From Schaalia odontolytica (GTDB lineage Bacteria > Actinomycetota > Actinomycetes > Actinomycetales > Actinomycetaceae), in NCBI RefSeq assembly GCF_005696695.1, contig NZ_CP040006.1:2010001-2042000 (forward strand): a stretch of 32,000 nt of DNA. The letters run 5' to 3'. Positions 1 to 29,772 of the stretch are shown here, piece after piece. The notes beneath the pieces were generated by a model. It searched no databases. It saw nothing but the letters and a program-made list of their open reading frames with translations, and was not told the origin of the DNA. Position 1 is the stretch's first letter. Each line of letters starts with the position of its first letter. The position numbers and the translations under genes are program-made.

Positions 1-1
1 A

Positions 2-88
2 GATCCCCTCGATGAATTTGTAAGAACCTTTCGCATTGAAAACAAACAGGATGTTAAAACTCAGCTGATTTCAGGGAATTACTTTTAG
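2..88 (+). CDS. 3' end of an unidentified CDS truncated by the window edge (DPLDEFVRTFRIENKQDVKTQLISGNYF*)
   Basis: The frame is open from base 2 to TAG at 86-88 inside the AT-rich segment. There is no start codon in the window and no recognisable family. Weak call. Confidence 0.2.
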   Translation, partial: DPLDEFVRTFRIENKQDVKTQLISGNYF

Positions 89-210
89 GTACTTTCAATG
101 TCAGGATTTTAAAATGGGGTAAAAGCGAGACAATAACGAATGACTCCCATTTGGTTCGAAAATCTACAATACCTAAGGAAGTTGATAGACGAATAATGGG
201 CAAATTTAGT

Positions 211-1356
211 TTAGAAGAACCACCAGTAAGGCACGGAATACCGTTTAGTACGCGCAACCCAGAAAGAAATAAAATGACTAGCTATAGCTAGAGTAAAAAC
301 GGTTGCAACACTCAACACTGTTATAGGATTAGAGGCGAAAAGCAAAGAGAGAATCAAGGCAGCCAGATAGAGTGTCGCTTGAGCACAGTAGTAACTTCTC
401 GAATAGCGAAGATAGTTTTTGTTATAGGGCCCATTTGCTAGGACAGCAGCTTGGAAGAGGCCAATCCCGATATAAAAGAGGCTGATTGCAACGAGAAGAT
501 TAGCATCAGGATTCAGAAGAAAACCCATCGAAACTGTCATCAACATAAGCCCGATGAAAATAGGATAGTGACTATAAATTATAAATAATCCCTTTTGATT
601 GGATCCTTGATCAATAGCATGGTCAAATTCGCCAAAATAAAACAAGAACAGGGAAAGCATGATAACGAAATTAAGAACCGAATAAATCGAGAAATTCTCA
701 ACTGTAAAGAAGCTAACTAGCCCAATAACCATCTCTCCAAACGTAATAATGACAAGAAGGGAGACGCGCTCGATTAAATGGGGAAGATTTACCTGGAAAT
801 GCTCATCTTTAGTAATCAAGAAAATTGGCACAATAAATGTTAGCAGAATACTAGCAATAAAGATATAGACTCCAACGTAAATAGGAAAAAGAGCTGCCAG
901 ATAGACTCCTAAGCTTTGCAGACCTGTTAACCATAGAAAACCTTTGATACTTTCCCGATCAGCATTATCGGTTGATCCTCTAAAAAACTGAACCAAATAT
1001 TGAAAAAATAAGGTAAGGGTTAATGTGCCAACAGCCCAACAGGTATGATAGTACCATTGTTGCCAATTGTATCCAATCATATTGGATATAAAGAGCATAA
1101 GTCCCATGTTGACAAACATGATCACCATGTTAAATAACGAGTTCGTTCCATAGCGATTGGTATAAATGGTTTGAATCATCCAGGAATTGATGATAACCAT
1201 GACAGAGATGAAGAAATCAAGTAAAGAATCCCAAGCCAAAACACCGCTATGAAGAGGGTGAATTAAAGCAGTTGCTTTTGAAATTGCAAAAACAAACACT
1301 AGGTCATAAAATAGTTCTGAAAATTCTACACGTTTATGCTTAATAAGAGTTGCCAT
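211..1356 (-). CDS. ltrA: Low temperature requirement protein A (LtrA) family integral membrane protein, 381 aa
   Basis: Intact ORF. The N-terminal signature SELFYDLVFVFAISKA matches the LtrA-family ELFFDLVFVFA motif. The protein is multi-pass and hydrophobic throughout, with AT-rich codon usage unlike the rest of the window. A GAAAGG Shine-Dalgarno lies ~8 nt upstream of the ATG at 1356. Confidence 0.8.
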   Translation of the reverse strand: MATLIKHKRVEFSELFYDLVFVFAISKATALIHPLHSGVLAWDSLLDFFISVMVIINSWMIQTIYTNRYGTNSLFNMVIMFVNMGLMLFISNMIGYNWQQWYYHTCWAVGTLTLTLFFQYLVQFFRGSTDNADRESIKGFLWLTGLQSLGVYLAALFPIYVGVYIFIASILLTFIVPIFLITKDEHFQVNLPHLIERVSLLVIITFGEMVIGLVSFFTVENFSIYSVLNFVIMLSLFLFYFGEFDHAIDQGSNQKGLFIIYSHYPIFIGLMLMTVSMGFLLNPDANLLVAISLFYIGIGLFQAAVLANGPYNKNYLRYSRSYYCAQATLYLAALILSLLFASNPITVLSVATVFTLAIASHFISFWVARTKRYSVPYWWFF

Positions 1357-1570
1357 CTTAAGACCTTTCTGTTGTATAGGTGCAAGTTATCACAACATAC
1401 ACTATAGAGCATAGTGCAACAAATGAACTCATAGCGCTTCGATAGAAAAGTGAGATTATCCCCACTTACTATTAAATCTAATAGCTCCTCGTTTTCAATC
1501 AAGAGCTCTAATGGAGATTTTTTCTCGCTACAATAAAACCGGGTTCATTTTGGTTATGAAATGTCCTTTT

Positions 1571-1891
1571 CTAAGCAGTTGAATCAACATACAACTCTCT
1601 TCCGTGTTCTGTGTATAGCTGATTGCCTCTTGGTCGGTTAAGTAAATCCTCTAAGTGTTGCCCATCCACATGTGGGAAATGCTCGATAGATTTGACAGCT
1701 TTTAAGATTTCACCTATTTGATCAGAGCATTTATTAGATTCAAGAACACGCTTTTCTAACTCAATCTCTTTACTAATTCCAAATAGTTAGGTTGGAGTTG
1801 CATTGAAACATTCCGCTATATTATCCATGATTTATAAAGGTAGGATAGCCATTTTGTATTTCGTAATCAGAGATGGACTATTTACTGATTC
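1571..1891 (-). pseudogene. 5'-truncated XRE/HTH_3-like regulator remnant with two in-frame TAA codons
   Basis: The minus-strand frame reads ESVNSPSLITKYKMAILPL*IMDNIAECFNATPT*LFGISKEIELEKRVLES...YVDSTA*. The stretch IAECFNATPT*LFG resembles the C-terminal helix signature of HTH_3 domains (IA..F.VS.DYLLG), with TAA where Tyr (TAT/TAC) is expected. In-frame stops sit at 1832-1834 and 1787-1789. The N-terminal helices are missing beyond the composition breakpoint. Confidence 0.4.
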
Positions 1892-1899
1892 CTACACCG

Positions 1900-2593
1900 T
1901 CCATCTGAAAGACCTCAACATTCCCAGTACCATCTGTGATCGCCCCGATCTGAGCGCGGGCGCTCGCCCGGATGACCTGGGGTTGGAGGTGACGGGTCAG
2001 CGCATTGAGCCAGACCCTGCAGTGTTGGTATGCCATATTGCTGGTGAGGATCGGTGGTGCCGACGCTGCGCGTGCCTGGGAACTTCTTGTGGCACGGCGG
2101 TCAGGCGCTTGGCTCACGTACCCTGCGGGTGGCGTCCCACATCTGGCTGGCCTCCCAGCCCAACACGTAACGCGAGCGCATGGAGATCGCCGCGATGGAT
2201 CGATTTACCGGGTTCACAAGCGCAGCCGCTGAAGAACTCCCCGGCGCGAGGGCGGTCATGGATCTCTTCCACGTCGCGCACCTGGCCGGGGATGCTCTCG
2301 ATGAGTGCCGGAGGCACATCGGGCAAGAACGTCACCAGCGACGCGGGCATCCCTACCGCCCTCACGGAGATCGTCACACTGGGAAGAACGCTCAAACGGT
2401 GATCCAGAGATATCCTGGCCTACTTCGACCAGCCCCCACACCACAGGCGATCCCACCGAAGCCATCAACGGCCACCTCGAACACCGACGCGGCTCCGCAC
2501 TCGAACTTGCGAAACCTCACCAACTACACCACCCGAGCACTCCTCGAAACAGGAGGATTCAAAACCCAACTACACCCCCAACTATGAAGAGCC
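1900..2593 (+). mobile_element. Degraded ISL3-family insertion sequence remnant: right end retained, left end deleted
   Basis: Transposase fragments are described in the next entry. The sequence ends ...CTATGAAGAGCC at 2593, whose reverse complement GGCTCTTCAT... matches the GGCTCTTC-type terminal inverted repeat I recall for ISL3 elements. No matching left IR was found near 1880-1940. Confidence 0.7.
1925..2587 (+). pseudogene. ISL3 family transposase pseudogene with internal deletions and several frameshifts
   Basis: Fragments lie in three frames. (1) STICDRPDL..LGLEVTGQRIEPDPAVLVCHIAGEDRWCRRCACLGT..RRLAHVPCGWRPT, the N-terminal zinc-finger region. (2) RERMEIAAMDRFTGFTSAAAEELPGARAVMDLFHVAHLAGDALDECRR. 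(3) TEIVTLGRTLKR / DILAYFDQP / PTEAINGHLEHRRGSAL / RNLTNYTTRALLETGGFKTQLHPQL*. Only ~215 of the ~430 aa expected for an ISL3 transposase are present. Confidence 0.8.
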
Positions 2594-3192
2594 ACTTTTT
2601 CCAGTTGACTTAGATGCCCCCTACAGGCAATCGCAGCGGCCTCGCGGGCCACCACGCTCGCCCAGCGCGCGCTTGCAGCACCGGGACGACGATAGAGGAG
2701 GTTGACGAGGTTTCATCACCGCGTGACACTGACCACCGTGACCACGTCGCGCATGACCCCACTCAGCATCGGCTCAAGCCCGGCTGATTTCCACCCGCAC
2801 CCGACCATCGCGTACACTGGTCCCACACCAATACAATGTGACTCAAAATACATTAGATTGAGGGCGCTGCACCTCGCAATGATGTATCTTGATCTGTTCG
2901 CCACTAACCGAGGAGGATCACATGCCGCGGATTCGAGACTCTCGAACACGTGCGTGCAATGAGAGCCAGGCCAAATGCCACGCTCGATCCGCTTCGCTGC
3001 GCGTGGCACCACTCGGGAGAAACACACTCAGCGTGATGGCACCCCAGTCCCCCACACACACTGATCCAACAACCGGTTCGGGCAACTCGTAGCCCACCCA
3101 CCAATCGCGCGAGGCCTCATCTCGCTCACAACCCGCGCACACGCGCACCAACCCAAACCGCGCAGATGCGCACCACCTCTAAGGAGAACATC

Positions 3193-3918
3193 ATGGCCGA
3201 AAAGCAGACGATCCTGGGCCGCATTGCTCAGCTCGCCAAGGCGAACATCAACGCGCTCCTCGACAAGGCCGAGGACCCGCAGAAGATGATCGACCAGCTC
3301 ATCCGCGACTACACCAACTCGATCATCGAGGCCGAGAACGCGATCGCTCAGACCCTGGGCAACCTGCGCATGGCCGAGCGTGACTACGAGGAAGACGTTA
3401 AGGCCGCCGCCGACTGGGGCCAGAAGGCCGCCGCCGCGTCCGCGAAGGCTGACTCCCTGCGCGCCGCCGGCGACGAGGCCGGAGCCGACAAGTGGGACAA
3501 CCTGGCCAAGGTTGCCCTCGGCAAGCAGATCCAGTTCGAGAATGAGGTCAAGACCGAGGAGCCCGCTCTCGCTTCTCAGCGCGATGTCGCCGAGCGCCTG
3601 AAGACCGGCCTCGCTCAGATGAAGGACAAGCTCTCCGAGCTCAAGAGCCGCCGCGACCAGCTGATCGCCCGCGAGAAGACCGCTAAGGCTCAGGCCCAGG
3701 TCACGGAGGCCCTCGGCTCCATCAACATCCTGGACCCCACGAGCGAGCTCGGCCGCTTCGAGGACCGCGTGCGCCAGCAGGAGGCCCTCGCCCAGGGCAA
3801 GATGGAACTGGCCGCCTCCTCGCTGGACGCCCAGTTCGCTGAGCTGCAGACCGACTCCTCGCAGGTGGAGATCGAGGCTCGCCTGGCCGCCCTGAAGGGC
3901 AACAACACCCAGGCGTGA
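3193..3918 (+). CDS. pspA: PspA/IM30 family protein (phage-shock protein A-like), 241 aa
   Basis: MAEKQTILGRIAQLAKANINALLDKAEDPQKMIDQLIRDY matches the PspA/IM30 N-terminal signature (..NINALLDKAEDPEKM..). The rest is Ala/Glu/Lys/Gln-rich and coiled-coil-like. AAGGAG at 3181-3186 precedes the ATG at 3193; the ORF track's upstream ATG at 3166 lacks an SD. Confidence 0.9.
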   Translation: MAEKQTILGRIAQLAKANINALLDKAEDPQKMIDQLIRDYTNSIIEAENAIAQTLGNLRMAERDYEEDVKAAADWGQKAAAASAKADSLRAAGDEAGADKWDNLAKVALGKQIQFENEVKTEEPALASQRDVAERLKTGLAQMKDKLSELKSRRDQLIAREKTAKAQAQVTEALGSINILDPTSELGRFEDRVRQQEALAQGKMELAASSLDAQFAELQTDSSQVEIEARLAALKGNNTQA

Positions 3919-3949
3919 GCAACGCGGCCCAGCCGCACACATAGACAGG

Positions 3950-3977
3950 CCGGGCGGCCCCTCGCGGGGCCGCCCGG
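3950..3977. terminator. Bidirectional GC-rich hairpin between the convergent pspA and NYN genes
   Basis: CCGGGCGGCCCC-tcgc-GGGGCCGCCCGG forms a perfect 12-bp stem with a 4-nt loop, followed by TTCGTC on the plus strand. Confidence 0.7.
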
Positions 3978-4026
3978 TTCGTCATGTCGGTGCCAACGCG
4001 TCCGCTCGCGGACGCGGGGCCAGGGT

Positions 4027-4599
4027 TTACAGGAAGGACATCGGGTCGAAGTCGTCGATATCGATGATGTGGAGCCTGGGTAGGCGCACCTGGAAGGCGT
4101 GCACGTCGTATTCGAGGTCGATGATCTCCAGGCCTCGTTCCTCCAGCTCGTGGAGCTGGGAGGAGAGGAATTCCTTGAAGCACATGACCGCGACGCGGCG
4201 GCCCTGGTCGAGGAGGGTCTCGATCTGGGGCAGGAAGTCGGCATCGTGGCTGGCCAGGATCACGTCGCCCGTACCGAGCTGCGCGATCGCGTCCATGGTG
4301 CGCTGGAGGCCGACGTCGACGACCTTCATGTCGGCCGGACCCGACAGGGGGATGACCGAGTAGTCCATGGCCGTGAGCGCCTGGACGAAGCCCATCGGCA
4401 GGAAGCCGGAGGAGCCGTTGAGGAAGAACAGGCCCTTGGCCTTCTGGCCCCAGCGGCCGTGCGCGCTCTCGAGGACACGATCCCAGCGGGGGCGCTCCTC
4501 GGGGTTCGGGCGCCGATCAAGGACAGAGAGACCCAGCGTGGCATCGATATTTTCGCCGTCTACGACGAGATATGTTGTTTGATTATTAGGGTTTTCCAT
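4027..4599 (-). CDS. NYN (LabA/DUF88-like) domain protein, 190 aa
   Basis: The N-terminal YLVVDGENIDATLG and the later ILASHDADFLP are typical acidic-residue motifs of NYN/LabA-like PIN-fold nucleases. There is no clear SD, so the transcript may be leaderless. Confidence 0.75.
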   Translation of the reverse strand: MENPNNQTTYLVVDGENIDATLGLSVLDRRPNPEERPRWDRVLESAHGRWGQKAKGLFFLNGSSGFLPMGFVQALTAMDYSVIPLSGPADMKVVDVGLQRTMDAIAQLGTGDVILASHDADFLPQIETLLDQGRRVAVMCFKEFLSSQLHELEERGLEIIDLEYDVHAFQVRLPRLHIIDIDDFDPMSFL

Positions 4600-4666
4600 G
4601 GGAATAGAGTAACTGACGATTGTCCATACCTATGCGGCCTTGAGTCCTATGTATAACCCGATAGAG

Positions 4667-4701
4667 CGAGGCCGGGACTGCTCAGCGCAGCCCCGGCCTC
4701 G
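4667..4701 (-). terminator. Hairpin downstream of glpK
   Basis: CGAGGCCGGGaCTGC-tcagc-GCAGcCCCGGCCTCG forms a 15-bp stem with one mismatch, 22 nt after the glpK stop. There is no strong U-tract. Confidence 0.6.
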
Positions 4702-4722
4702 TCAATTTCTATGGAGTGACAA

Positions 4723-6243
4723 TCACTTCACGTCGTCGTCAACCCAGTCGAGCGTACGCGTGACGGCCTTCTTCCACAGGCGGTAGGTGCGGTCGCGCTC
4801 GGCCGGCTCCATGGACGGCGTCCAGCGCTTGCCTTCCTGCCAGTTGGCCACGACGTCCTCGGTGCCCGACCAGTAGCCCACGGCCATACCGGCGGCGTAG
4901 GCGGCACCCAGGGCGGTCGTCTCGATGACCTTCGGGCGAACAACGTCGACGCCGCACAGGTCGGCCTGGAACTGCATGACCAGGTCGTCGTGCGTCATGC
5001 CGCCGTCAACCTTGAGCTCCTTGAGCGGCACGCCGGAGTCTGCGTTCATCGCGTCGAGGACCTCGGCGCTCTGGAACGCGGTCGACTCCTCGACGGCGCG
5101 GGCGATGTGGCCCTTGTTGACGTAGCGGGTGAGACCCACGATCGCGCCGCGGGCGTCCGCGCGCCAGTAGGGGGCAAACAGGCCGGAGAAGGCGGGGACG
5201 AAGTACACGCCGCCGTTATCCTCGACCGTGCTGGCCAGCTCGCCAATGTCCGAGGACTTGACGATCATGCCCAGGTTGTCGCGCAGCCACTGGACCAGCG
5301 AGCCTGCAACGGCGATCGAACCCTCGAGGGCGTACACGGCCGGCTGATCGCCGATCTTGTAGGCGACCGTGGTGAGCAGGCCGTTGTTGGAGAAGACGGG
5401 CTCGGTGCCGGTGTTCATGAGCATGAAGCAGCCGGTGCCGTAGGTGTTCTTCGCCATGCCCTTCTCGAAGCAGGCCTGGCCGAAGGTGGCCGCCTGCTGG
5501 TCGCCGAGGATTCCGGCGATCGGGGTGTCGATGAGCAGACCATTCTTGCGGCCGTAGCCGTAGATCTCGGAGGAAGACTTGATCTCGGGGAGCATCGACA
5601 TCGGGATGCCGAAAATCTCGCAGACGTCCTCGCGCCACTGCAGCGTGCGGATGTCCATGAGCATGGTGCGCGAGGCGTTGGTGACGTCGGTGCAGTGCAC
5701 GCCGCCGTTGACGCCGCCCGTCAGGTTCCACAGGACCCAGCAGTCGGTGTTGCCGAAGAGCAGGTCGCCGGCCTCGGCGCGCTCGCGAGCGCCCTCGACG
5801 TTGTCGAGGATCCACTTGATCTTGGAGCCGGAGAAGTAGGGGGACAGACCCAGGCCACAGATCTGGCGGAAGCGGTCCGGGCCCTCGTCGCCCTCGAGTT
5901 CCTTGACGATGTCGGAGGTGCGCATGTCCTGCCAGACGATGGCGTTGTAGACGGGCTCGCCGGTGTTCTTGTCCCACACGACGGTGGTCTCACGCTGGTT
6001 GGTGATACCGACGGCCGCGAGGTTGTGGCGGTTGATTTCCGCCTTCTGCAGAGCCTCGGCGACGACGGTACGGGTGGTCTCCCAGATTTCAATGGGGTTG
6101 TGCTCGACCCAGCCCGGGTTCGGGAAGATCTGGGTGAATTCCTTCTGTCCGACGGAGACGATCTCGCCGGAGTGGTTGAAGATGATCGCACGGGTCGAGG
6201 TGGTGCCCTGATCGATGGCGAGAACGAACATTTCGGTGGTCAT
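4723..6243 (-). CDS. glpK: Glycerol kinase, 506 aa
   Basis: Full-length FGGY kinase. Recognisable stretches include [24 protein letters not shown] and GDQQAA. It lies directly downstream of glpF. Confidence 0.97.
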
Positions 6244-6356
6244 GAGTGTCCTTTCGGAGGCGTTGTCACGTCATTGTGTGTGCCGCGTCGAGCCACCTGC
6301 GCGGCAAGCGGGACTTCGCAGTCCCACAAAATGTCACCCCGGCGGCGGGGTATGAC

Positions 6357-6385
6357 GCGGGCGAGGCCGCGGAGGCCTCGCCCGC
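6357..6385 (-). other. Strong intercistronic hairpin between glpF and glpK
   Basis: GCGGGCGAGGCC-gcgga-GGCCTCGCCCGC forms a perfect 12-bp stem, 11 nt after the glpF stop. A second small hairpin, GGGACT-tcgc-AGTCCC, lies at 6310-6325. No U-tract follows, so this looks like a stabiliser, processing site or partial terminator rather than a canonical intrinsic terminator. Confidence 0.5.
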
Positions 6386-6395
6386 GCACTCACTC

Positions 6396-7181
6396 TCAGG
6401 CGAGAATGAGGAAGTAGAGAACGGTACCGACGATGGCGCCGATGATCGGGCCGACGACGGGAACCCAGGAGTAGCCCCAGTCGGAGCCACCCTTGCCCTT
6501 GATCGGGAGGATCGCGTGGGCGATACGGGGGCCGAGGTCACGGGCCGGGTTGATGGCGTATCCGGTGGGGCCGCCAAGCGAGTTACCGATGACAACGATA
6601 ATCAGCGCGACGCCGAGGGGGCCGAAGTGGGTCTCGGTGTAGCCGGAGACGTAGACCCACAGGATCAGGACGGCGGTGCCGATGGCCTCAGTGAGGCAGT
6701 TCCAACCGTAGGAGCGGATCTCGGGGCCGGTGGAGAAGACGCCGAGCTTGAGGGCGGGGTCGCAGTCCTCGTCGAAGTGCTTCTTGAAGGTCAGCCAGCA
6801 CAGGACAGCGCCGACGAAGGCGCCGAGGAACTGAGCAACGATGTAAACGAGGATGTTGGTCGCGTTGACCGCGACGCCGGGGGCGAGCTCAACAGAGGAG
6901 TCGAAGGCGTGGCCGACAGCCTTGGCGATCGTCACGGCGGGGTTCAGGTGACCGCCGGAGCGGAATGCAACGTACACGCCGGCGAAGACCGCGAGGCCCC
7001 ATCCCCAGTTGATGAGCAGCCAGCCGCCGCCCTTACCCTTGGACTTGGGCAGCAGGTTCGTCGCGACGACGCCGCCACCGAGGAGCAGCAGCACGGCCGT
7101 GCCGAGGAATTCGGACCAGAACAGCTGGGCCGTGGTGAAAGCAGCCGTGTCGGCGGCTGCCGGGAGCAGTGTTGTGAGCAT
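6396..7181 (-). CDS. glpF: Glycerol uptake facilitator (MIP/aquaporin family), 261 aa
   Basis: Both NPA boxes are present (HLNPAVTIA and AINPARDLGPR), the hydrophobic pattern is consistent with six TM segments, and the gene sits upstream of glpK. Confidence 0.95.
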   Translation of the reverse strand: MLTTLLPAAADTAAFTTAQLFWSEFLGTAVLLLLGGGVVATNLLPKSKGKGGGWLLINWGWGLAVFAGVYVAFRSGGHLNPAVTIAKAVGHAFDSSVELAPGVAVNATNILVYIVAQFLGAFVGAVLCWLTFKKHFDEDCDPALKLGVFSTGPEIRSYGWNCLTEAIGTAVLILWVYVSGYTETHFGPLGVALIIVVIGNSLGGPTGYAINPARDLGPRIAHAILPIKGKGGSDWGYSWVPVVGPIIGAIVGTVLYFLILA

Positions 7182-7328
7182 GTTTCCCTATCTTTCTCCA
7201 GCGCGTCGTCGCGCCGGTCACCGGTGGTTTCCCACCGCGAACAATGTGCCAGCGAACACTATCAACTGAGATAGCGATCCGTGGGTCACACCAAGTATGT
7301 CACTTGTTGCACGTTGGCCCAAACTGAG

Positions 7329-7342
7329 TGCACATTCGTGCA
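7329..7342. promoter_or_regulatory. Palindrome TGCAC-ATTC-GTGCA in the glpF/sorC divergent intergenic region (candidate operator)
   Basis: The 5+5 inverted repeat is perfect. A second copy with the same arms lies 97 bp away at 7426-7439. Confidence 0.35.
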
Positions 7343-7425
7343 GCCCCAGAGGTGTGACCCTGACCATCTGACGAAGATTAATCTACTCACCCCCGCACGG
7401 AAGTCAATGTTCAAACACACACATC

Positions 7426-7439
7426 TGCACGCTTGTGCA
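7426..7439. promoter_or_regulatory. Palindrome TGCAC-GCTT-GTGCA (second copy of the candidate operator)
   Basis: The arms are identical to those of the 7329-7342 site. The site overlaps the most upstream candidate GTG start of the SorC-family gene. Confidence 0.35.
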
Positions 7440-8435
7440 TGGCACACTAGAAAACGTGACAATACGTGACGAACAGGCGCATGAGGCCGCCTCGATGTAC
7501 TACCTCCAGGGGCAGACGATGGAGACAATCGCCCGCCACCTGCAGATATCACGCTCCTCGGTCTCGCGACTTCTCGCCCACGCGCGGGAGGTCGGCCTGG
7601 TGCGCATCTCGGTGTCTGCCTCCCCCGGCCTCAAGGGCACCCTCGCAGGACAAATCGCCGACCTCTTCGGCGTCCAGGTTTCTGTCGTTCCCGTTCACGA
7701 CGTCCACACCGAGGTCAACCGCCTGCACAACGTTGCGCTCGTCGCGGCGGAACACCTTATCGACATGCTCTTCCCCGGCGTCACCCTCGGCATCGCCTGG
7801 GGAAACACCACCGCCGAAGTGACGCGGGCCATGCCCCACGTGTCTTTTGCGGGTTCCACAGTCGTCCAGCTCAACGGAGCGGCCACCGCCACCGAGTCGG
7901 GCATGCCCTACGCCGAGGCCATCATCGCTCGTGCCGCGAAGGCCATCGGCGGGCGCATCGTCAACTTCCCGTGCCCGCATTCTTCGACTACGCGGACACC
8001 AAAGAGGCGCTCTGGCGCGAACGCTCCGTCCAGTCGGTCCTCAACACGATCGACAGCGCAGACGTCGCCCTGTTCGGCGTCGGCTCCATGTCGGCCCGCC
8101 TCCCCTCTCACGTCTACTCGGGGGGGTTCCTCGACCCCAACGAGATCGCGGCGGCCCAGAACGACGGGGTTGTCGGCGACGTGTGCACCGTCCTCATCCG
8201 CGAGGACGGCTCCACGAACATGCACCTCAACGAGCGCGCCTCGGGCCCGAGCCCAGCCACGCTCAAGAAGATCCCACGCCGCCTCTGCGTCGTCTCCGGC
8301 GCCTCGAAGGCGCTACCGCTCCTCGGGGCACTGCGCGCAGGGGTCGCCACCGACCTCGTCCTCGACGACGGGGCCGCGCACGAGCTCCTCGACCTCGTCC
8401 ACACGCGCATGGCTCCCCGCCGCTCCTACATCTGA
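7435..8435 (+). pseudogene. SorC/DeoR-sugar-binding family transcriptional regulator, split by a 1-nt frameshift near 7968-7971
   Basis: The N-terminal part carries the HTH (AASMYYLQGQTMETIARHLQISRSSVSRLLAHAREVGLVRISV) and reads through to ...GGRIVNFP. The continuation VPAFFDYADTKEALWRERSVQSVL...DDGAAHELL, the conserved SorC sugar-binding domain including the P(V)PAFFD motif, is in the -1 frame from 7971 to the TGA at 8433-8435. AACTTCCC|GTGCCC appears to lack one base in a C run. The start is uncertain: GTG 7435, GTG 7456 or ATG 7495. Confidence 0.8.
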
Positions 8436-29696: not shown

Positions 29697-29772
29697 TGGA
29701 GCCGGCTATCGGACTCGAACCGATGACCTGCTGTTTACAAGACAGCTGCTCTACCAACTGAGCTAAGCCGGC
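29697..29772 (-). tRNA. tRNA-Thr (anticodon UGU), CCA encoded
   Basis: The minus strand reads GCCGGCT-TA-GCTC-AGTTGGTA-GAGC-A-GCTGT-CTTGTAA-ACAGC-AGGTC-ATCGG-TTCGAGT-CCGAT-AGCCGGC-T-CCA. This is a perfect cloverleaf with a 7-bp acceptor stem, a GTTCGAGT T-loop and anticodon TGT. Confidence 0.95.

Follow-up and report, generated by a model that had tools for sequence, protein, structure and literature searches.

The window analysed here, a 32,000-nucleotide stretch of Schaalia odontolytica contig NZ_CP040006.1, opens in AT-rich DNA. GC content was 36.9% for bases 5–1888 compared to 0.624–0.708 (mean 0.664, SD 0.019) for 1884-bp windows across 2628–32000, placing the AT-rich block ~15 SD under the backbone. 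A preliminary description had reported this compositional switch (G+C of 22/60 at 1–60 and 42/60 at 5041–5100, exactly the counts that we obtained), an intact LtrA-family gene with AT-rich codon usage, decayed regulator fragments, and a Firmicutes-like origin, all of which our analysis bore out. Foreign DNA runs from ~base 5 to base 2627, and the AT-rich stretch is probably the complete remnant, ~2 kb long, of a Streptococcus integrative mobilizable element (IME) carrying ltrA.

The intact gene is ltrA (211–1356, minus strand), the cargo of the element, which encodes a 381-aa LtrA family membrane protein. The protein matched Pfam PF06772 over its full length (E = 5e-58; 197.5 bits against a cutoff of 31.9; residues 9–352 of 381, profile positions 1–354 of 356); a PDB sequence search returned no match. 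GC3 was 0.38 for ltrA and 0.85–0.92 for pspA, glpK, and an NYN-like gene. The gene is 94–96% identical in nucleotide sequence to ltrA of oral streptococci, with dN/dS values of 0.26–0.44. On its 3' side lies the noncoding right (cargo-side) arm of an IME_tRNALys-type element (10–210, minus strand), assigned by homology to streptococcal arms: window coordinates (w) 5–179 are homologous to repeated arm segments in ~35 Streptococcus loci, published IME_Ssal*_tRNALys sequences have the same ends, and the paired TTTGCCCCA arm repeats persist in it as one degenerate copy. The upstream (promoter) region of ltrA (1357–1442, minus strand) is AT-rich and streptococcal, with homology to streptococcal loci extending to ~1397; a scan for consensus promoters and terminators found sites no more numerous than in shuffled sequences. 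The regulator fragments are an XRE/HTH_3 pseudogene (1443–1894, minus strand) that is 85% identical at the nucleotide level to the gene for a 170-aa XRE protein in an S. salivarius element (L017); six-frame translation showed that it lacks ~30 N-terminal codons and contains one in-frame stop and one frameshift. Its truncation point at 1894 coincides within 1–6 nt with a truncation upstream of ltrA in several streptococci, which counts against this truncation having arisen in Schaalia. We found no ORFs for an integrase, DUF3173, or Rep_trans protein between 1 and 2700 and no related integrase in the 32-kb window.

The AT-rich DNA adjoins a 62% GC remnant of an actinobacterial ISL3-family insertion sequence (1889–2594, plus strand), recognised by Pfam PF01610, by a tblastn match to the M. 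avium ISL3 transposase, and by comparison with a 1439-bp near-intact copy in a metagenome contig (L072). The remnant retains 706 of these 1439 bp, spread over three frames with stops. The first 88 bp (left inverted repeat and part of the leader) are missing, two internal deletions removed ~409 and ~231 bp, and the transposase start codon has changed from ATG to ATT. A functional ISL3 element has two inverted repeats and an intact ~430-aa DDE transposase; here, only the right repeat is intact (..CTATGAAGAGCC). The two homologies meet in a 6-bp overlap, TTCCTA: the ISL3 match starts at 1889, and the Streptococcus-type XRE match extends to 1894. Thus, a breakpoint previously placed at 1892–1925 is real, but the joint is sharper and falls within 1889–1894; it does truncate the XRE 5' end and the left ISL3 repeat, whereas the first ISL3 codons, thought to be lost, are present with a mutated start. 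Past the right end of ISL3 lie 33 bp of streptococcal element DNA (2595–2627), consisting of a tRNA-Lys 3'-end core and the start of the left arm, and ISL3 was therefore inserted into the foreign block. Nested in this way, the remnant is not the island border that had been proposed; the junction is at 2627/2628. Composition-based island callers would set the border at the ISL3 joint, 730 bp short of the true one.

The attL'-like end of the element (2595–2627, minus strand) contains a 16-mer, CCTGTAGGGGGCATCT, at 2612–2627 (minus strand) that perfectly matches the 3' end of streptococcal tRNA-Lys(CTT), being identical to it in L020, L025, L037, and L038, and that has no other match with ≤3 mismatches in the 32 kb. 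This core overlaps the first ~20 nt of the left arm (TCTAAGTCAACTGGAAAAAGT, ~2595–2615). Immediately to the right of the 2627/2628 border, 2628–2695 (plus strand) holds the displaced last ~22 codons (..AIAAASRATTLAQRALAAPGRR) and stop codon of a host TPM-domain gene and aligns to the end of an intact 603-aa ortholog in two related Schaalia contigs (L066 and L067). In both relatives, this gene is followed by pspA, neither ltrA nor ISL3 is present, and the two window flanks abut with an overlap of ~14 bp. The insertion target was thus codon ~581 of the 603-aa gene, which is reduced to 517 aa in the window strain.

At the opposite end, an attR'-like hybrid junction, AGATCCCCTCGATG (1–14), joins host TPM-gene sequence (..GACGAAGATCCCC) to the right end of the streptococcal element (..ATGAATTTGTAAG), and the empty sites of L065, L066, and L067 abut at this position. 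The open frame at 1–88, previously read as the tail of another CDS, is instead the disrupted TPM-domain pseudogene reading into the noncoding arm of the element. Most Schaalia copies of attR' read CATCTAGGGGATCTTCG on the ltrA strand, and streptococcal modules terminate ..CAAATTCATG(T/C)AGGGGG(C/T)ATCT; at two positions the window strain departs from this streptococcal consensus (CATCG compared to CATG(T/C)). The block stops within the tRNA-Lys core (CAT(C)TAGGGG/ATCTTCG, with the slash marking the end), and this attR' core is imperfect, having two bases fewer than the tRNA core. From the flanks and L065/L066, we reconstructed a native target of GA(T/C)CCCCTACAGGC, for which the tRNA counterpart is GATGCCCCCTACAGGG, and the reconstructed Schaalia site reads GCGATTGCCTGTAGGGGATCTTCGTC; within the crossover region, the two empty sites match neither each other nor the reconstructed target. 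Apart from the core look-alike, the host sequence shows neither loss nor duplication of bases. The target is a protein-coding gene rather than the 3' end of tRNA-Lys, and a tRNA scan of the window found tRNA-Thr at 29697–29772 and no other tRNA, leaving none close to the block. A repeat search of 1–3200 turned up nothing meaningful, whether direct or inverted; for the tool used, the att cores are too short or gapped.

The donor family is found in oral streptococci. The block from w0/5 to w1894 is colinear with oral Streptococcus loci (84% identity over w0–179, 95% over w211–1397, and 85% over w1442–1894), in which ARAGORN placed the ltrA modules next to tRNA-Lys(CTT). Several of these loci (L020, L025, L038, and others) have ltrA modules in arrays beside the tRNA, and in S. 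salivarius KSS6 (L017) the module lies within an element that encodes a tyrosine integrase, DUF3173, a Rep_trans-like protein, and XRE. Fifty-five tRNALys-targeting IMEs in S. salivarius, and 12 elements carrying an LtrA homologue, have been described (Lao et al., 2020; PMC7563491). The deposited sequences of these elements start TGTAGGGGGCATCTAAATCAACAGGAAAAAGCC (other strand, TGCCCCCTACATGAATTTGTAAGAAC), matching window 2627–2595 and ~5–30. Two hallmarks of the family, a boundary core equal to the 3' end of tRNA-Lys(CTT) and arms that match the family ends (window 2595–2615 and ~5–180), are present in Schaalia; the integrase and relaxase of the element itself are not, and with no mobility genes the Schaalia relic is at most a derivative (CIME-like or a decayed IME) rather than an IME. 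None of the sampled Firmicutes carries exactly the actinobacterial-type ltrA variant, and a metagenome scan for AAAGGTTCTTACAAATTCATGNAGGGGG, in which a right arm of the actinobacterial type runs into an intact core, gave zero matches; hence, we found no direct donor of this variant. A Fusobacterium nucleatum plasmid, the only match when 1–1925 was searched against a plasmid database by megablast, was informative on distribution and was rejected as donor; the match covers ltrA alone.

These features are best explained, in our judgement with good probability, by integrase-type insertion of a tRNA-Lys(CTT) IME at a secondary site, followed by ISL3 insertion and decay to the present relic. The source would have been a family whose members carry a tyrosine integrase, a DUF3173 excisionase-like protein, a Rep_trans-type relaxase, an XRE regulator, and cargo, in this case ltrA. 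Such an element, or an integrase-less att-flanked derivative moved alongside an intact one, would have passed from an oral streptococcus, or a near relative of one, into a bacterium ancestral to one sublineage of Schaalia odontolytica. The integrase would then have recombined the element core, which copies the 3' end of tRNA-Lys, with a chromosomal site that resembles this core by chance (..GCCTGTAGGGGATCT.. when read on the strand of ltrA, encoding ..EDPLQ..) 22 codons before the stop of the 603-aa TPM-domain gene, leaving core copies at both ends and host DNA intact. We infer this catalytic step solely from junction anatomy because no integrase, excisionase, or relaxase gene is left in the Schaalia locus. 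A host ISL3 element next inserted 20 nt inside the left arm, and a deletion from ISL3 base 88 to the XRE gene, joined at the 6-bp TTCCTA microhomology, would have removed the left end of ISL3, the 5' end of XRE, and everything between; if the whole element had arrived, its integrase, excisionase, and relaxase genes would also have been lost. Subsequently, ISL3 would have decayed further and the interrupted TPM gene would have gained nonsense mutations, with ltrA remaining intact in this lineage. The donor family, element ends, core sequences, empty site, ISL3 nesting, and junctions common to several lineages are direct observations, and integrase catalysis, arrival as a full or reduced element, the entry route, and any benefit of ltrA are deductions. 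ISL3 and both junctions are common to Schaalia lineages that are 85–97% identical in the flanks, indicating a single old event.

Because the window begins in AT-rich DNA, it could not by itself exclude a larger island upstream, and the preliminary description had taken bases 1–1890 for the right-hand edge of such an island. Directly upstream of window base 1, however, the source contig (L001) is host sequence of 60–70% GC that encodes two TPM-domain paralogs, CSD, and DUF3027; over the 10 kb upstream, GC is 53–72% with conserved host genes, and relatives with the empty site join both flanks directly. The low-GC stretch of the contig is only ~2 kb, has host genes on both sides, and stops ~5 bases into the window. 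As the contig returns to host GC and host genes there, the block is not the edge of an upstream island, and the signature of a large genomic island (low GC for many kb beyond base 1 and an integrase, relaxase, or att site close by) was not seen. Thus, acquisition from Firmicutes stands, with oral Streptococcus as donor, and the large-island interpretation is exceedingly improbable. An assembly chimera that fused a Firmicute contig to an actinobacterial one, which had been raised as the alternative, is refuted as well and is given equally little credence. In two metagenome contigs, L103 and L095, a long AT-rich stretch lies upstream and ltrA is a mosaic that switches allele type in its last sixth, showing that ltrA can host streptococcal–actinobacterial joins; both contigs may be assembly chimeras, and we therefore left them out of the evidence. 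The Schaalia joins, however, recur in the GenBank assembly of an isolate (99.99% identity over 11.4 kb). Five Logan assemblies, built from different SRA runs, also span base 1 and 1889–1894 at 100% identity, and another four reach the block only in part. Diverged Schaalia lineages (L040, L064, and L069–L071; 92–94% identical) have the same junctions with lineage-specific substitutions and deletions. Foreign origin would also have been in doubt had high-GC actinobacteria supplied the best hits and had every relative shown the same flanks; L066 and L067 instead have empty sites. The ltrA gene is equally AT-rich in every actinobacterial host.

ISL3 might itself have been the vehicle, the AT-rich DNA having come in a composite transposon or ISL3-adjacent translocatable unit whose end the remnant marks. 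The AT-rich DNA does directly adjoin ISL3, and in L072 a near-intact ISL3 abuts an ltrA block with a second, inverted ISL3 end 6.6 kb away. Yet element DNA lies on the far side of the right inverted repeat (2595–2627), neither host/foreign junction coincides with an IS end, and the 62% GC ISL3 is closest to actinobacterial copies. Moreover, the L072 copy includes 235 bp of the Schaalia TPM gene and the Schaalia-type attR', so it derived from the Schaalia insertion and not the reverse; transport by ISL3 is accordingly very unlikely. Somewhat less improbable, and still unlikely, is uptake of naked streptococcal chromosomal DNA, for example from lysed plaque neighbours, with illegitimate, microhomology-mediated integration and no integrase. 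Under this model, coincidence with the att core would reflect a short G/C-rich microhomology, CCCCT/AGGGG. The sequence shared at the junctions is indeed short (~10 + 4 nt), the locus retains no integrase, and its ISL3/XRE joint is a microhomology joint. In addition, copies in Rothia (w175–1370) and on the Fusobacterium plasmid (w263–1397) end outside the cores, indicating that non-site-specific capture of ltrA also happens. Against this model, the block begins and ends at the pair of core copies that bound the unit in streptococci, so that it is exactly one element from first to last base, and host bases were neither lost nor duplicated beyond the core look-alike. Furthermore, the Actinomyces sp. 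ph3 lineage has copies with a different flank that break off at this same nucleotide of the core (CATGTAGGGG/TGGCGG, slash at the stop). Chance double illegitimate crossovers at both att cores are improbable.

The ph3-lineage and Schaalia copies belong to a wider group. Actinobacterial ltrA copies and their arms form their own clade with a common C-terminus, ..RTK(Q/R)YSVPYWGFF. Right-arm identity is 95% for Schaalia against Actinomyces sp. ph3 and only ~84% against sampled streptococci. The other junction of the ph3-lineage copy is inside the XRE gene, not at a core; the gene upstream of the insertion is a truncated FtsX-like permease, and the intact orthologs (L108–L110), relative to which this locus has undergone rearrangement, yielded no clean empty site. 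A second core remnant was sought in the ph3, Rothia, and L072 loci, and none was found. Scanning metagenomes with the variant-specific 3' end of ltrA recovered 35 contigs with two recurring junction classes, Schaalia-type and ph3-type; the remaining contigs have no recognisable right-arm end, and none of the 35 has a genuine low-GC host context. Overall, ltrA occurs in oral Schaalia, Actinomyces, and Rothia, in a Veillonella bin, and on a Fusobacterium plasmid. A tentative, rather doubtful reading is that the module is cross-phylum cargo still circulating in the human oral microbiome, through at least two core-mediated actinobacterial insertions, spread to Rothia and Fusobacterium, and re-mobilisation by ISL3. 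On this reading, the ..YSVPYWGFF variant left streptococci as an att-bearing unit and integrated at least twice in Actinomycetota via the streptococcal att core, once in the Schaalia TPM gene and once in the Actinomyces sp. ph3 lineage. The variant would also have reached Rothia, with a sister allele on the Fusobacterium plasmid, and ISL3 would have carried the module and 235 bp of Schaalia DNA into another organism of 50–60% GC (L072). If this were true, the streptococcal IME integrase would be functional in high-GC actinobacteria and LtrA would give a strong niche-specific benefit.

The Schaalia locus provides a base-pair-resolved case of a Firmicute IME in an actinobacterial chromosome, in which one can follow the donor family, the junctions on either side, the empty site, and the subsequent decay. 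Cross-phylum cases so resolved are rare, and full-text literature searches found no report of this one. The kinds of event are already well known (IME/CIME decay, secondary-site integration, and IS nesting). The case suggests that the att core of a streptococcal tRNA-Lys element is usable at look-alike sites in distant hosts. LtrA, a poorly understood membrane protein, appears to have been acquired repeatedly by unrelated oral bacteria and is therefore a candidate niche-adaptation gene.

Known systems resemble the relic in different respects. ISL3-family elements of Actinomycetota (ISPfr2-like, and the M. avium pMARIA copy) have the same zf-ISL3 and DDE_Tnp_ISL3 segments and GGCTCTTC terminal repeat at a full length of ~1.4 kb, whereas the window copy is a dead 706-bp remnant lacking the left inverted repeat. 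Pseudo-att (secondary-site) integration by tyrosine integrases is classic in phage lambda and several ICEs and is usually seen when the primary site of the normal host has been deleted. The Schaalia insertion likewise shares ~10–14 nt with the core, has hybrid cores at both ends, and shows no loss of target, but it occurs in another phylum; the tRNA-Lys of Schaalia itself presumably lacks the streptococcal core. The IME_tRNALys elements of S. salivarius (IME_PF02486 superfamily; PMC7563491) share with the relic the attachment core, the start of the left arm, the right arm, an XRE regulator directly upstream of the cargo, and LtrA as reported cargo. The relic differs in lacking integrase, excisionase, and relaxase genes, in being interrupted by an ISL3 remnant, and in residing in an actinobacterium of 66% GC at a look-alike site in a protein-coding gene, not in tRNA-Lys. 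CIMEs, att-flanked derivatives of ICEs or IMEs without an integrase, are described as abundant and tandemly arrayed at the tRNALys CTT gene of S. agalactiae (Puymege et al., 2015, as cited in PMC7563491). Like a CIME, the relic is a unit between two att-core copies, one full (2612–2627) and one a hybrid partial core (1–14), that has no mobility genes and holds only a regulator remnant and cargo. Known CIMEs, however, occupy bona fide att sites in the normal host genus of the element and can be re-mobilised by a resident related element, whereas the Schaalia relic is probably immobile by such a route because one core is a degenerate hybrid and no related integrase is known in Schaalia.

The GC content of bases 5–1888 is 36.9%, compared to 62.4–70.8% (mean 66.4, SD 1.9) for all 1884-bp windows across 2628–32000, and GC at third positions is 0.38 for ltrA versus 0.85–0.92 for neighbouring host genes. 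The compositional switch noted in the preliminary description is real and large, and the counts given for it (22/60 G+C at 1–60 and 42/60 at 5041–5100) are exact. The LtrA-family gene reported as intact is a 381-aa ORF (211–1356, − strand) that is full-length against PF06772 (E = 5e-58), and the decayed regulator fragments correspond to an XRE/HTH_3 remnant at 1443–1894 (− strand) with one stop and one frameshift; a decayed ISL3 transposase, detected by PF01610 and tblastn, begins at ~1889. What had been taken for the tail of a CDS at 1–88 is instead a TPM-domain pseudogene that runs on into the element arm.

The same description read this DNA as the edge of a large low-GC island with its body upstream, or as an assembly chimera. 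A GenBank contig (L001, GCA_001462375.1, 1.17 Mb), found by an exact LtrA protein match, is 99.99% identical to the window across 11.4 kb; NCBI assigns the identical protein to Schaalia odontolytica. Immediately upstream of window base 1, the DNA of this contig is 53–72% GC, with two TPM-domain/coiled-coil paralogs in tandem (517 and 698 aa) and, beyond them, CSD, DUF3027, and transporter genes. Because both composition and genes there are host-like, the low-GC DNA starts ~5 bases inside the window and is an islet of roughly 2 kb, with no island body upstream. A chimera is contradicted by the recurrence of the same joins in five Logan assemblies of separate SRA runs and in diverged Schaalia lineages. 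The five Logan assemblies match window positions 1–2559 or 1–2451 at 100% identity and run on into host sequence upstream, covering base 1 as well as the 1889–1894 joint, and the same junctions occur in ENA/GenBank contigs L040, L064, and L069–L071, which have their own substitutions and deletions and flank identities of 85–97%. L040 (NZ_JVKM01000049.1), deposited as Xylanimonas cellulosilytica strain 352_XCEL, is colinear with the window at ~93% identity over 5.3 kb, insert included, and is probably a mislabelled Schaalia-like genome.

Foreign DNA extends past the ISL3 remnant. Just beyond the ISL3 right inverted repeat, the 33 bp at 2595–2627 are 94% identical to streptococcal DNA at 13 loci, in all of which the counterpart lies ~88 bp past the XRE remnant and consists of the tRNA-Lys(CTT) 3′ end together with the initial 20 nt of the element left arm. 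The 16-mer attachment core CCTGTAGGGGGCATCT is present without mismatch at 2612–2627 (− strand), and no second copy was found in the window at up to three mismatches. Thus, ISL3 is nested in foreign DNA, and the right host/foreign junction is 2627/2628. At their other end, streptococcal modules read ..GTTCTTACAAATTCATG(T/C)AGGGGG(C/T)ATCT, a second copy of the core, and the Schaalia block stops inside this copy, where ..GTTCTTACAAATTCATCGAGGGG is followed directly by ATCTTCGTC or, in most Schaalia copies, by CATCTAGGGG. As both ends fall at core copies, the block coincides precisely with one element, opening at the first left-arm base and closing at the final right-arm base. In the Actinomyces sp. 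ph3 lineage, the copies lie beside another flank but stop at the same core nucleotide (CATGTAGGGG joined to TGGCGGCC).

The unoccupied target is preserved in related metagenomic Schaalia contigs, in which orthologs of the 517-aa TPM gene are 603 aa long. In two of them (L066 and L067), pspA comes immediately after this gene, and neither ltrA nor ISL3 is present. Window positions −2499 (upstream of base 1) to 7 align with L066 6255–8737 and 2605–2707 with L066 8724–8824, so both window flanks meet there with an overlap of ~14 bp. The empty site reads ..GACGAAGACCCCTTACGAGCG.. in L066 (encoding ..DEDPLRA..) and ..GACAAGGACCCTCTACAGGCG.. in a third contig, L065 (encoding ..DKDPLQA..). The target rebuilt from the window flanks, ..GACGAAGATCCCCTACAGGCAATC.., has GAT and CCCCTACAGG in common with the tRNA end GATGCCCCCTACAGGG, and the reconstructed Schaalia pseudo-site is GCGATTGCCTGTAGGGGATCTTCGTC. 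Insertion occurred 22 codons ahead of the TPM stop, and the severed gene end remains readable at 2628–2695; in the window strain, later nonsense mutations left the 517-aa ORF. The target gene is one of the two tandem paralogs (L001 11526–15391), and in L065 further paralog copies separate the 603-aa gene from pspA; the family expands and contracts at this locus, which may explain why the insertion was tolerated. Contigs L069–L071 have the same insert and ISL3 remnant and a further 372-bp deletion (−171 to 200) that took out attR′ together with the right arm and the tail of the TPM pseudogene, leaving a 538-aa TPM ORF whose end lies 1 bp from the ltrA stop.

When one genome per species was scanned with LtrA, the matches were mainly in oral Streptococcus (salivarius, oralis, mitis, infantis, parasanguinis, sanguinis, gordonii, and cristatus) at 90–93% amino-acid identity, with other matches in Rothia, Actinomyces sp. 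ph3, Actinomyces MAGs, and one Veillonella MAG. Colinearity with streptococcal loci covers the whole block rather than ltrA alone, bearing out the suggestion of a Firmicutes-like origin; identity to S. salivarius KSS6 (L017) is 84% over 0–179, 95% over 211–1397, and 85% over 1442–1894. Both flanking segments recur several times within single streptococcal loci, suggesting that modules are arranged in arrays. In KSS6, the ltrA module is part of an element adjoining tRNA-Lys(CTT) that encodes a tyrosine integrase, a DUF3173 protein, a weak Rep_trans-like protein, a 170-aa XRE regulator, and DUF308/DUF1269 cargo, followed by a truncated XRE and then ltrA. This element belongs to the published IME_tRNALys family; 55 tRNALys-targeting IMEs have been described in S. 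salivarius, and 12 integrative elements carry an LtrA homologue (Lao et al., 2020, PMC7563491). The termini of the element sequences deposited in that study are the sequences at both ends of the window block. A direct donor variant, with an actinobacterial-type right arm and an intact core, had zero matches in the metagenome scan. Judged against the published IME_Ssal27945_tRNALys, two integrase-less streptococcal modules (L020 ~5270–5300 and L038 ~7370–7400) have the integrase gene 3′ end (..GAGCAATCTTTCCAGACATCTCT) fused to XRE codon ~37 (..CATCTCTGATTACGAAAAAC) with microhomology of roughly 9 bp, which suggests that such CIME-like modules arise from IMEs by recurrent int-xis-rep deletion.

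Element ends that are exact to the base on both sides, hybrid cores, a lack of host loss, and a core-like target support secondary-site integration by a tyrosine integrase, which we consider the likely origin of the insertion. A complete IME could have arrived and later lost int-xis-rep in an ISL3-associated deletion, or an integrase-less module could have arrived alongside an intact element. The main rival is that naked streptococcal DNA was captured through microhomology. Copies in Rothia and Fusobacterium, which end away from cores, make this plausible in principle, but it fits poorly with the exact coincidence of both ends with cores and seems unlikely here. ISL3 as the vehicle is contradicted by its position inside the foreign block.

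The ISL3 element had been described as truncated, and comparison with a near-intact relative (1439 bp, GGCTCTTC inverted repeats) in metagenome contig L072 confirms this: the initial 88 bp are missing from 1889–2594, left inverted repeat included, there are two internal deletions (~409 and ~231 bp), and the start codon has changed from ATG to ATT. Every Schaalia lineage examined has the right inverted repeat joined to the left arm at the same point, 20 nt from the core; the IS therefore inserted only once, long ago. The ISL3/XRE joint lies at a shared hexamer, TTCCTA. The Schaalia XRE remnant begins (TAGGAATC..) within 1–6 nt of the start of the truncated XRE that precedes ltrA in several streptococci (L017 ~7365, L037, L041, and L060, compared with 1889–1894), but its start point, unlike theirs, is a joint with ISL3. 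In L072 (ENA ERZ28664686 scaffold_5, 274 kb, GC ~50–60%; 1–8200), positions −235 to 1434 are present at 94% identity, comprising 235 bp of the Schaalia TPM gene, a Schaalia-type attR′, the arm, and ltrA with its promoter. This block adjoins the right inverted repeat of the near-intact ISL3, and a second, inverted ISL3 right end lies at the contig start, enclosing ~6.6 kb that includes ABC-transporter genes; the arrangement has the appearance of an ltrA block re-mobilised, in association with ISL3, out of a Schaalia-type locus.

Among Schaalia lineages, block identity (91–98%) and flank identity (85–97%) are of the same order, which fits one insertion followed by vertical descent. The ltrA gene is intact in the window strain and the L069–L071 lineage and frameshifted in L040, with dN/dS of 0.26–0.44, indicating moderate constraint. 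By neighbour-joining without bootstrap, ltrA copies of Schaalia, ph3, Rothia, and L072 form one clade within streptococcal diversity, and the actinobacterial copies have a distinctive C-terminus (..YSVPYWGFF) in common; these sequences could reflect a single entry that then spread through Actinobacteria, or repeated entry from one unsampled donor.

Other ltrA loci vary in extent and setting. Rothia genomes (R. mucilaginosa DY-18 and Rothia spp.; L012, L018, and L046) have only 175–1370, with ispH on one side and, on the other, an ABC-transporter/two-component cluster near ychF; an IME left-arm piece and ~20 nt of an integrase 3′ end lie downstream of ltrA, but no right arm or core. The Rothia copy is a differently trimmed fragment, and in L046 ltrA is 5′-truncated. 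Fusobacterium nucleatum plasmid pKCOM1250 (CP077157, L011) carries ltrA at 2067–3253 with 88% nucleotide identity to the window, as a GC-richer islet (32–41%) in a 20–25% GC plasmid, compositionally foreign in the opposite direction, beside Fic, recombinase, and relaxase genes. In Actinomyces sp. ph3 (L013/L015 4961–5755), a truncated FtsX-like permease of 264 aa (orthologs ~455 aa) lies upstream of the ltrA block, and the locus has undergone rearrangement compared with intact orthologs (L108–L110). In two metagenome contigs, L103 and L095, there are 4–5 kb of streptococcal array upstream, and the initial five-sixths of ltrA matches, at 95–99% identity, a second group of streptococcal alleles (S. 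infantis OMI813, S. wuxiensis, and the Fusobacterium plasmid); the last sixth and downstream flank are Schaalia-type in L103 and Rothia-type in L095, and these contigs may be assembly chimeras or real homology-anchored recombinants.

The donor element family is known, as is LtrA as cargo of IME_tRNALys elements, and CIME-like decay, tRNALys tandem arrays, pseudo-att integration, and IS nesting likewise have precedents. This particular cross-phylum case, with its resolved pseudo-att site, appears to be unreported in the full-text literature searched, as does the breadth of ltrA spread across oral phyla.
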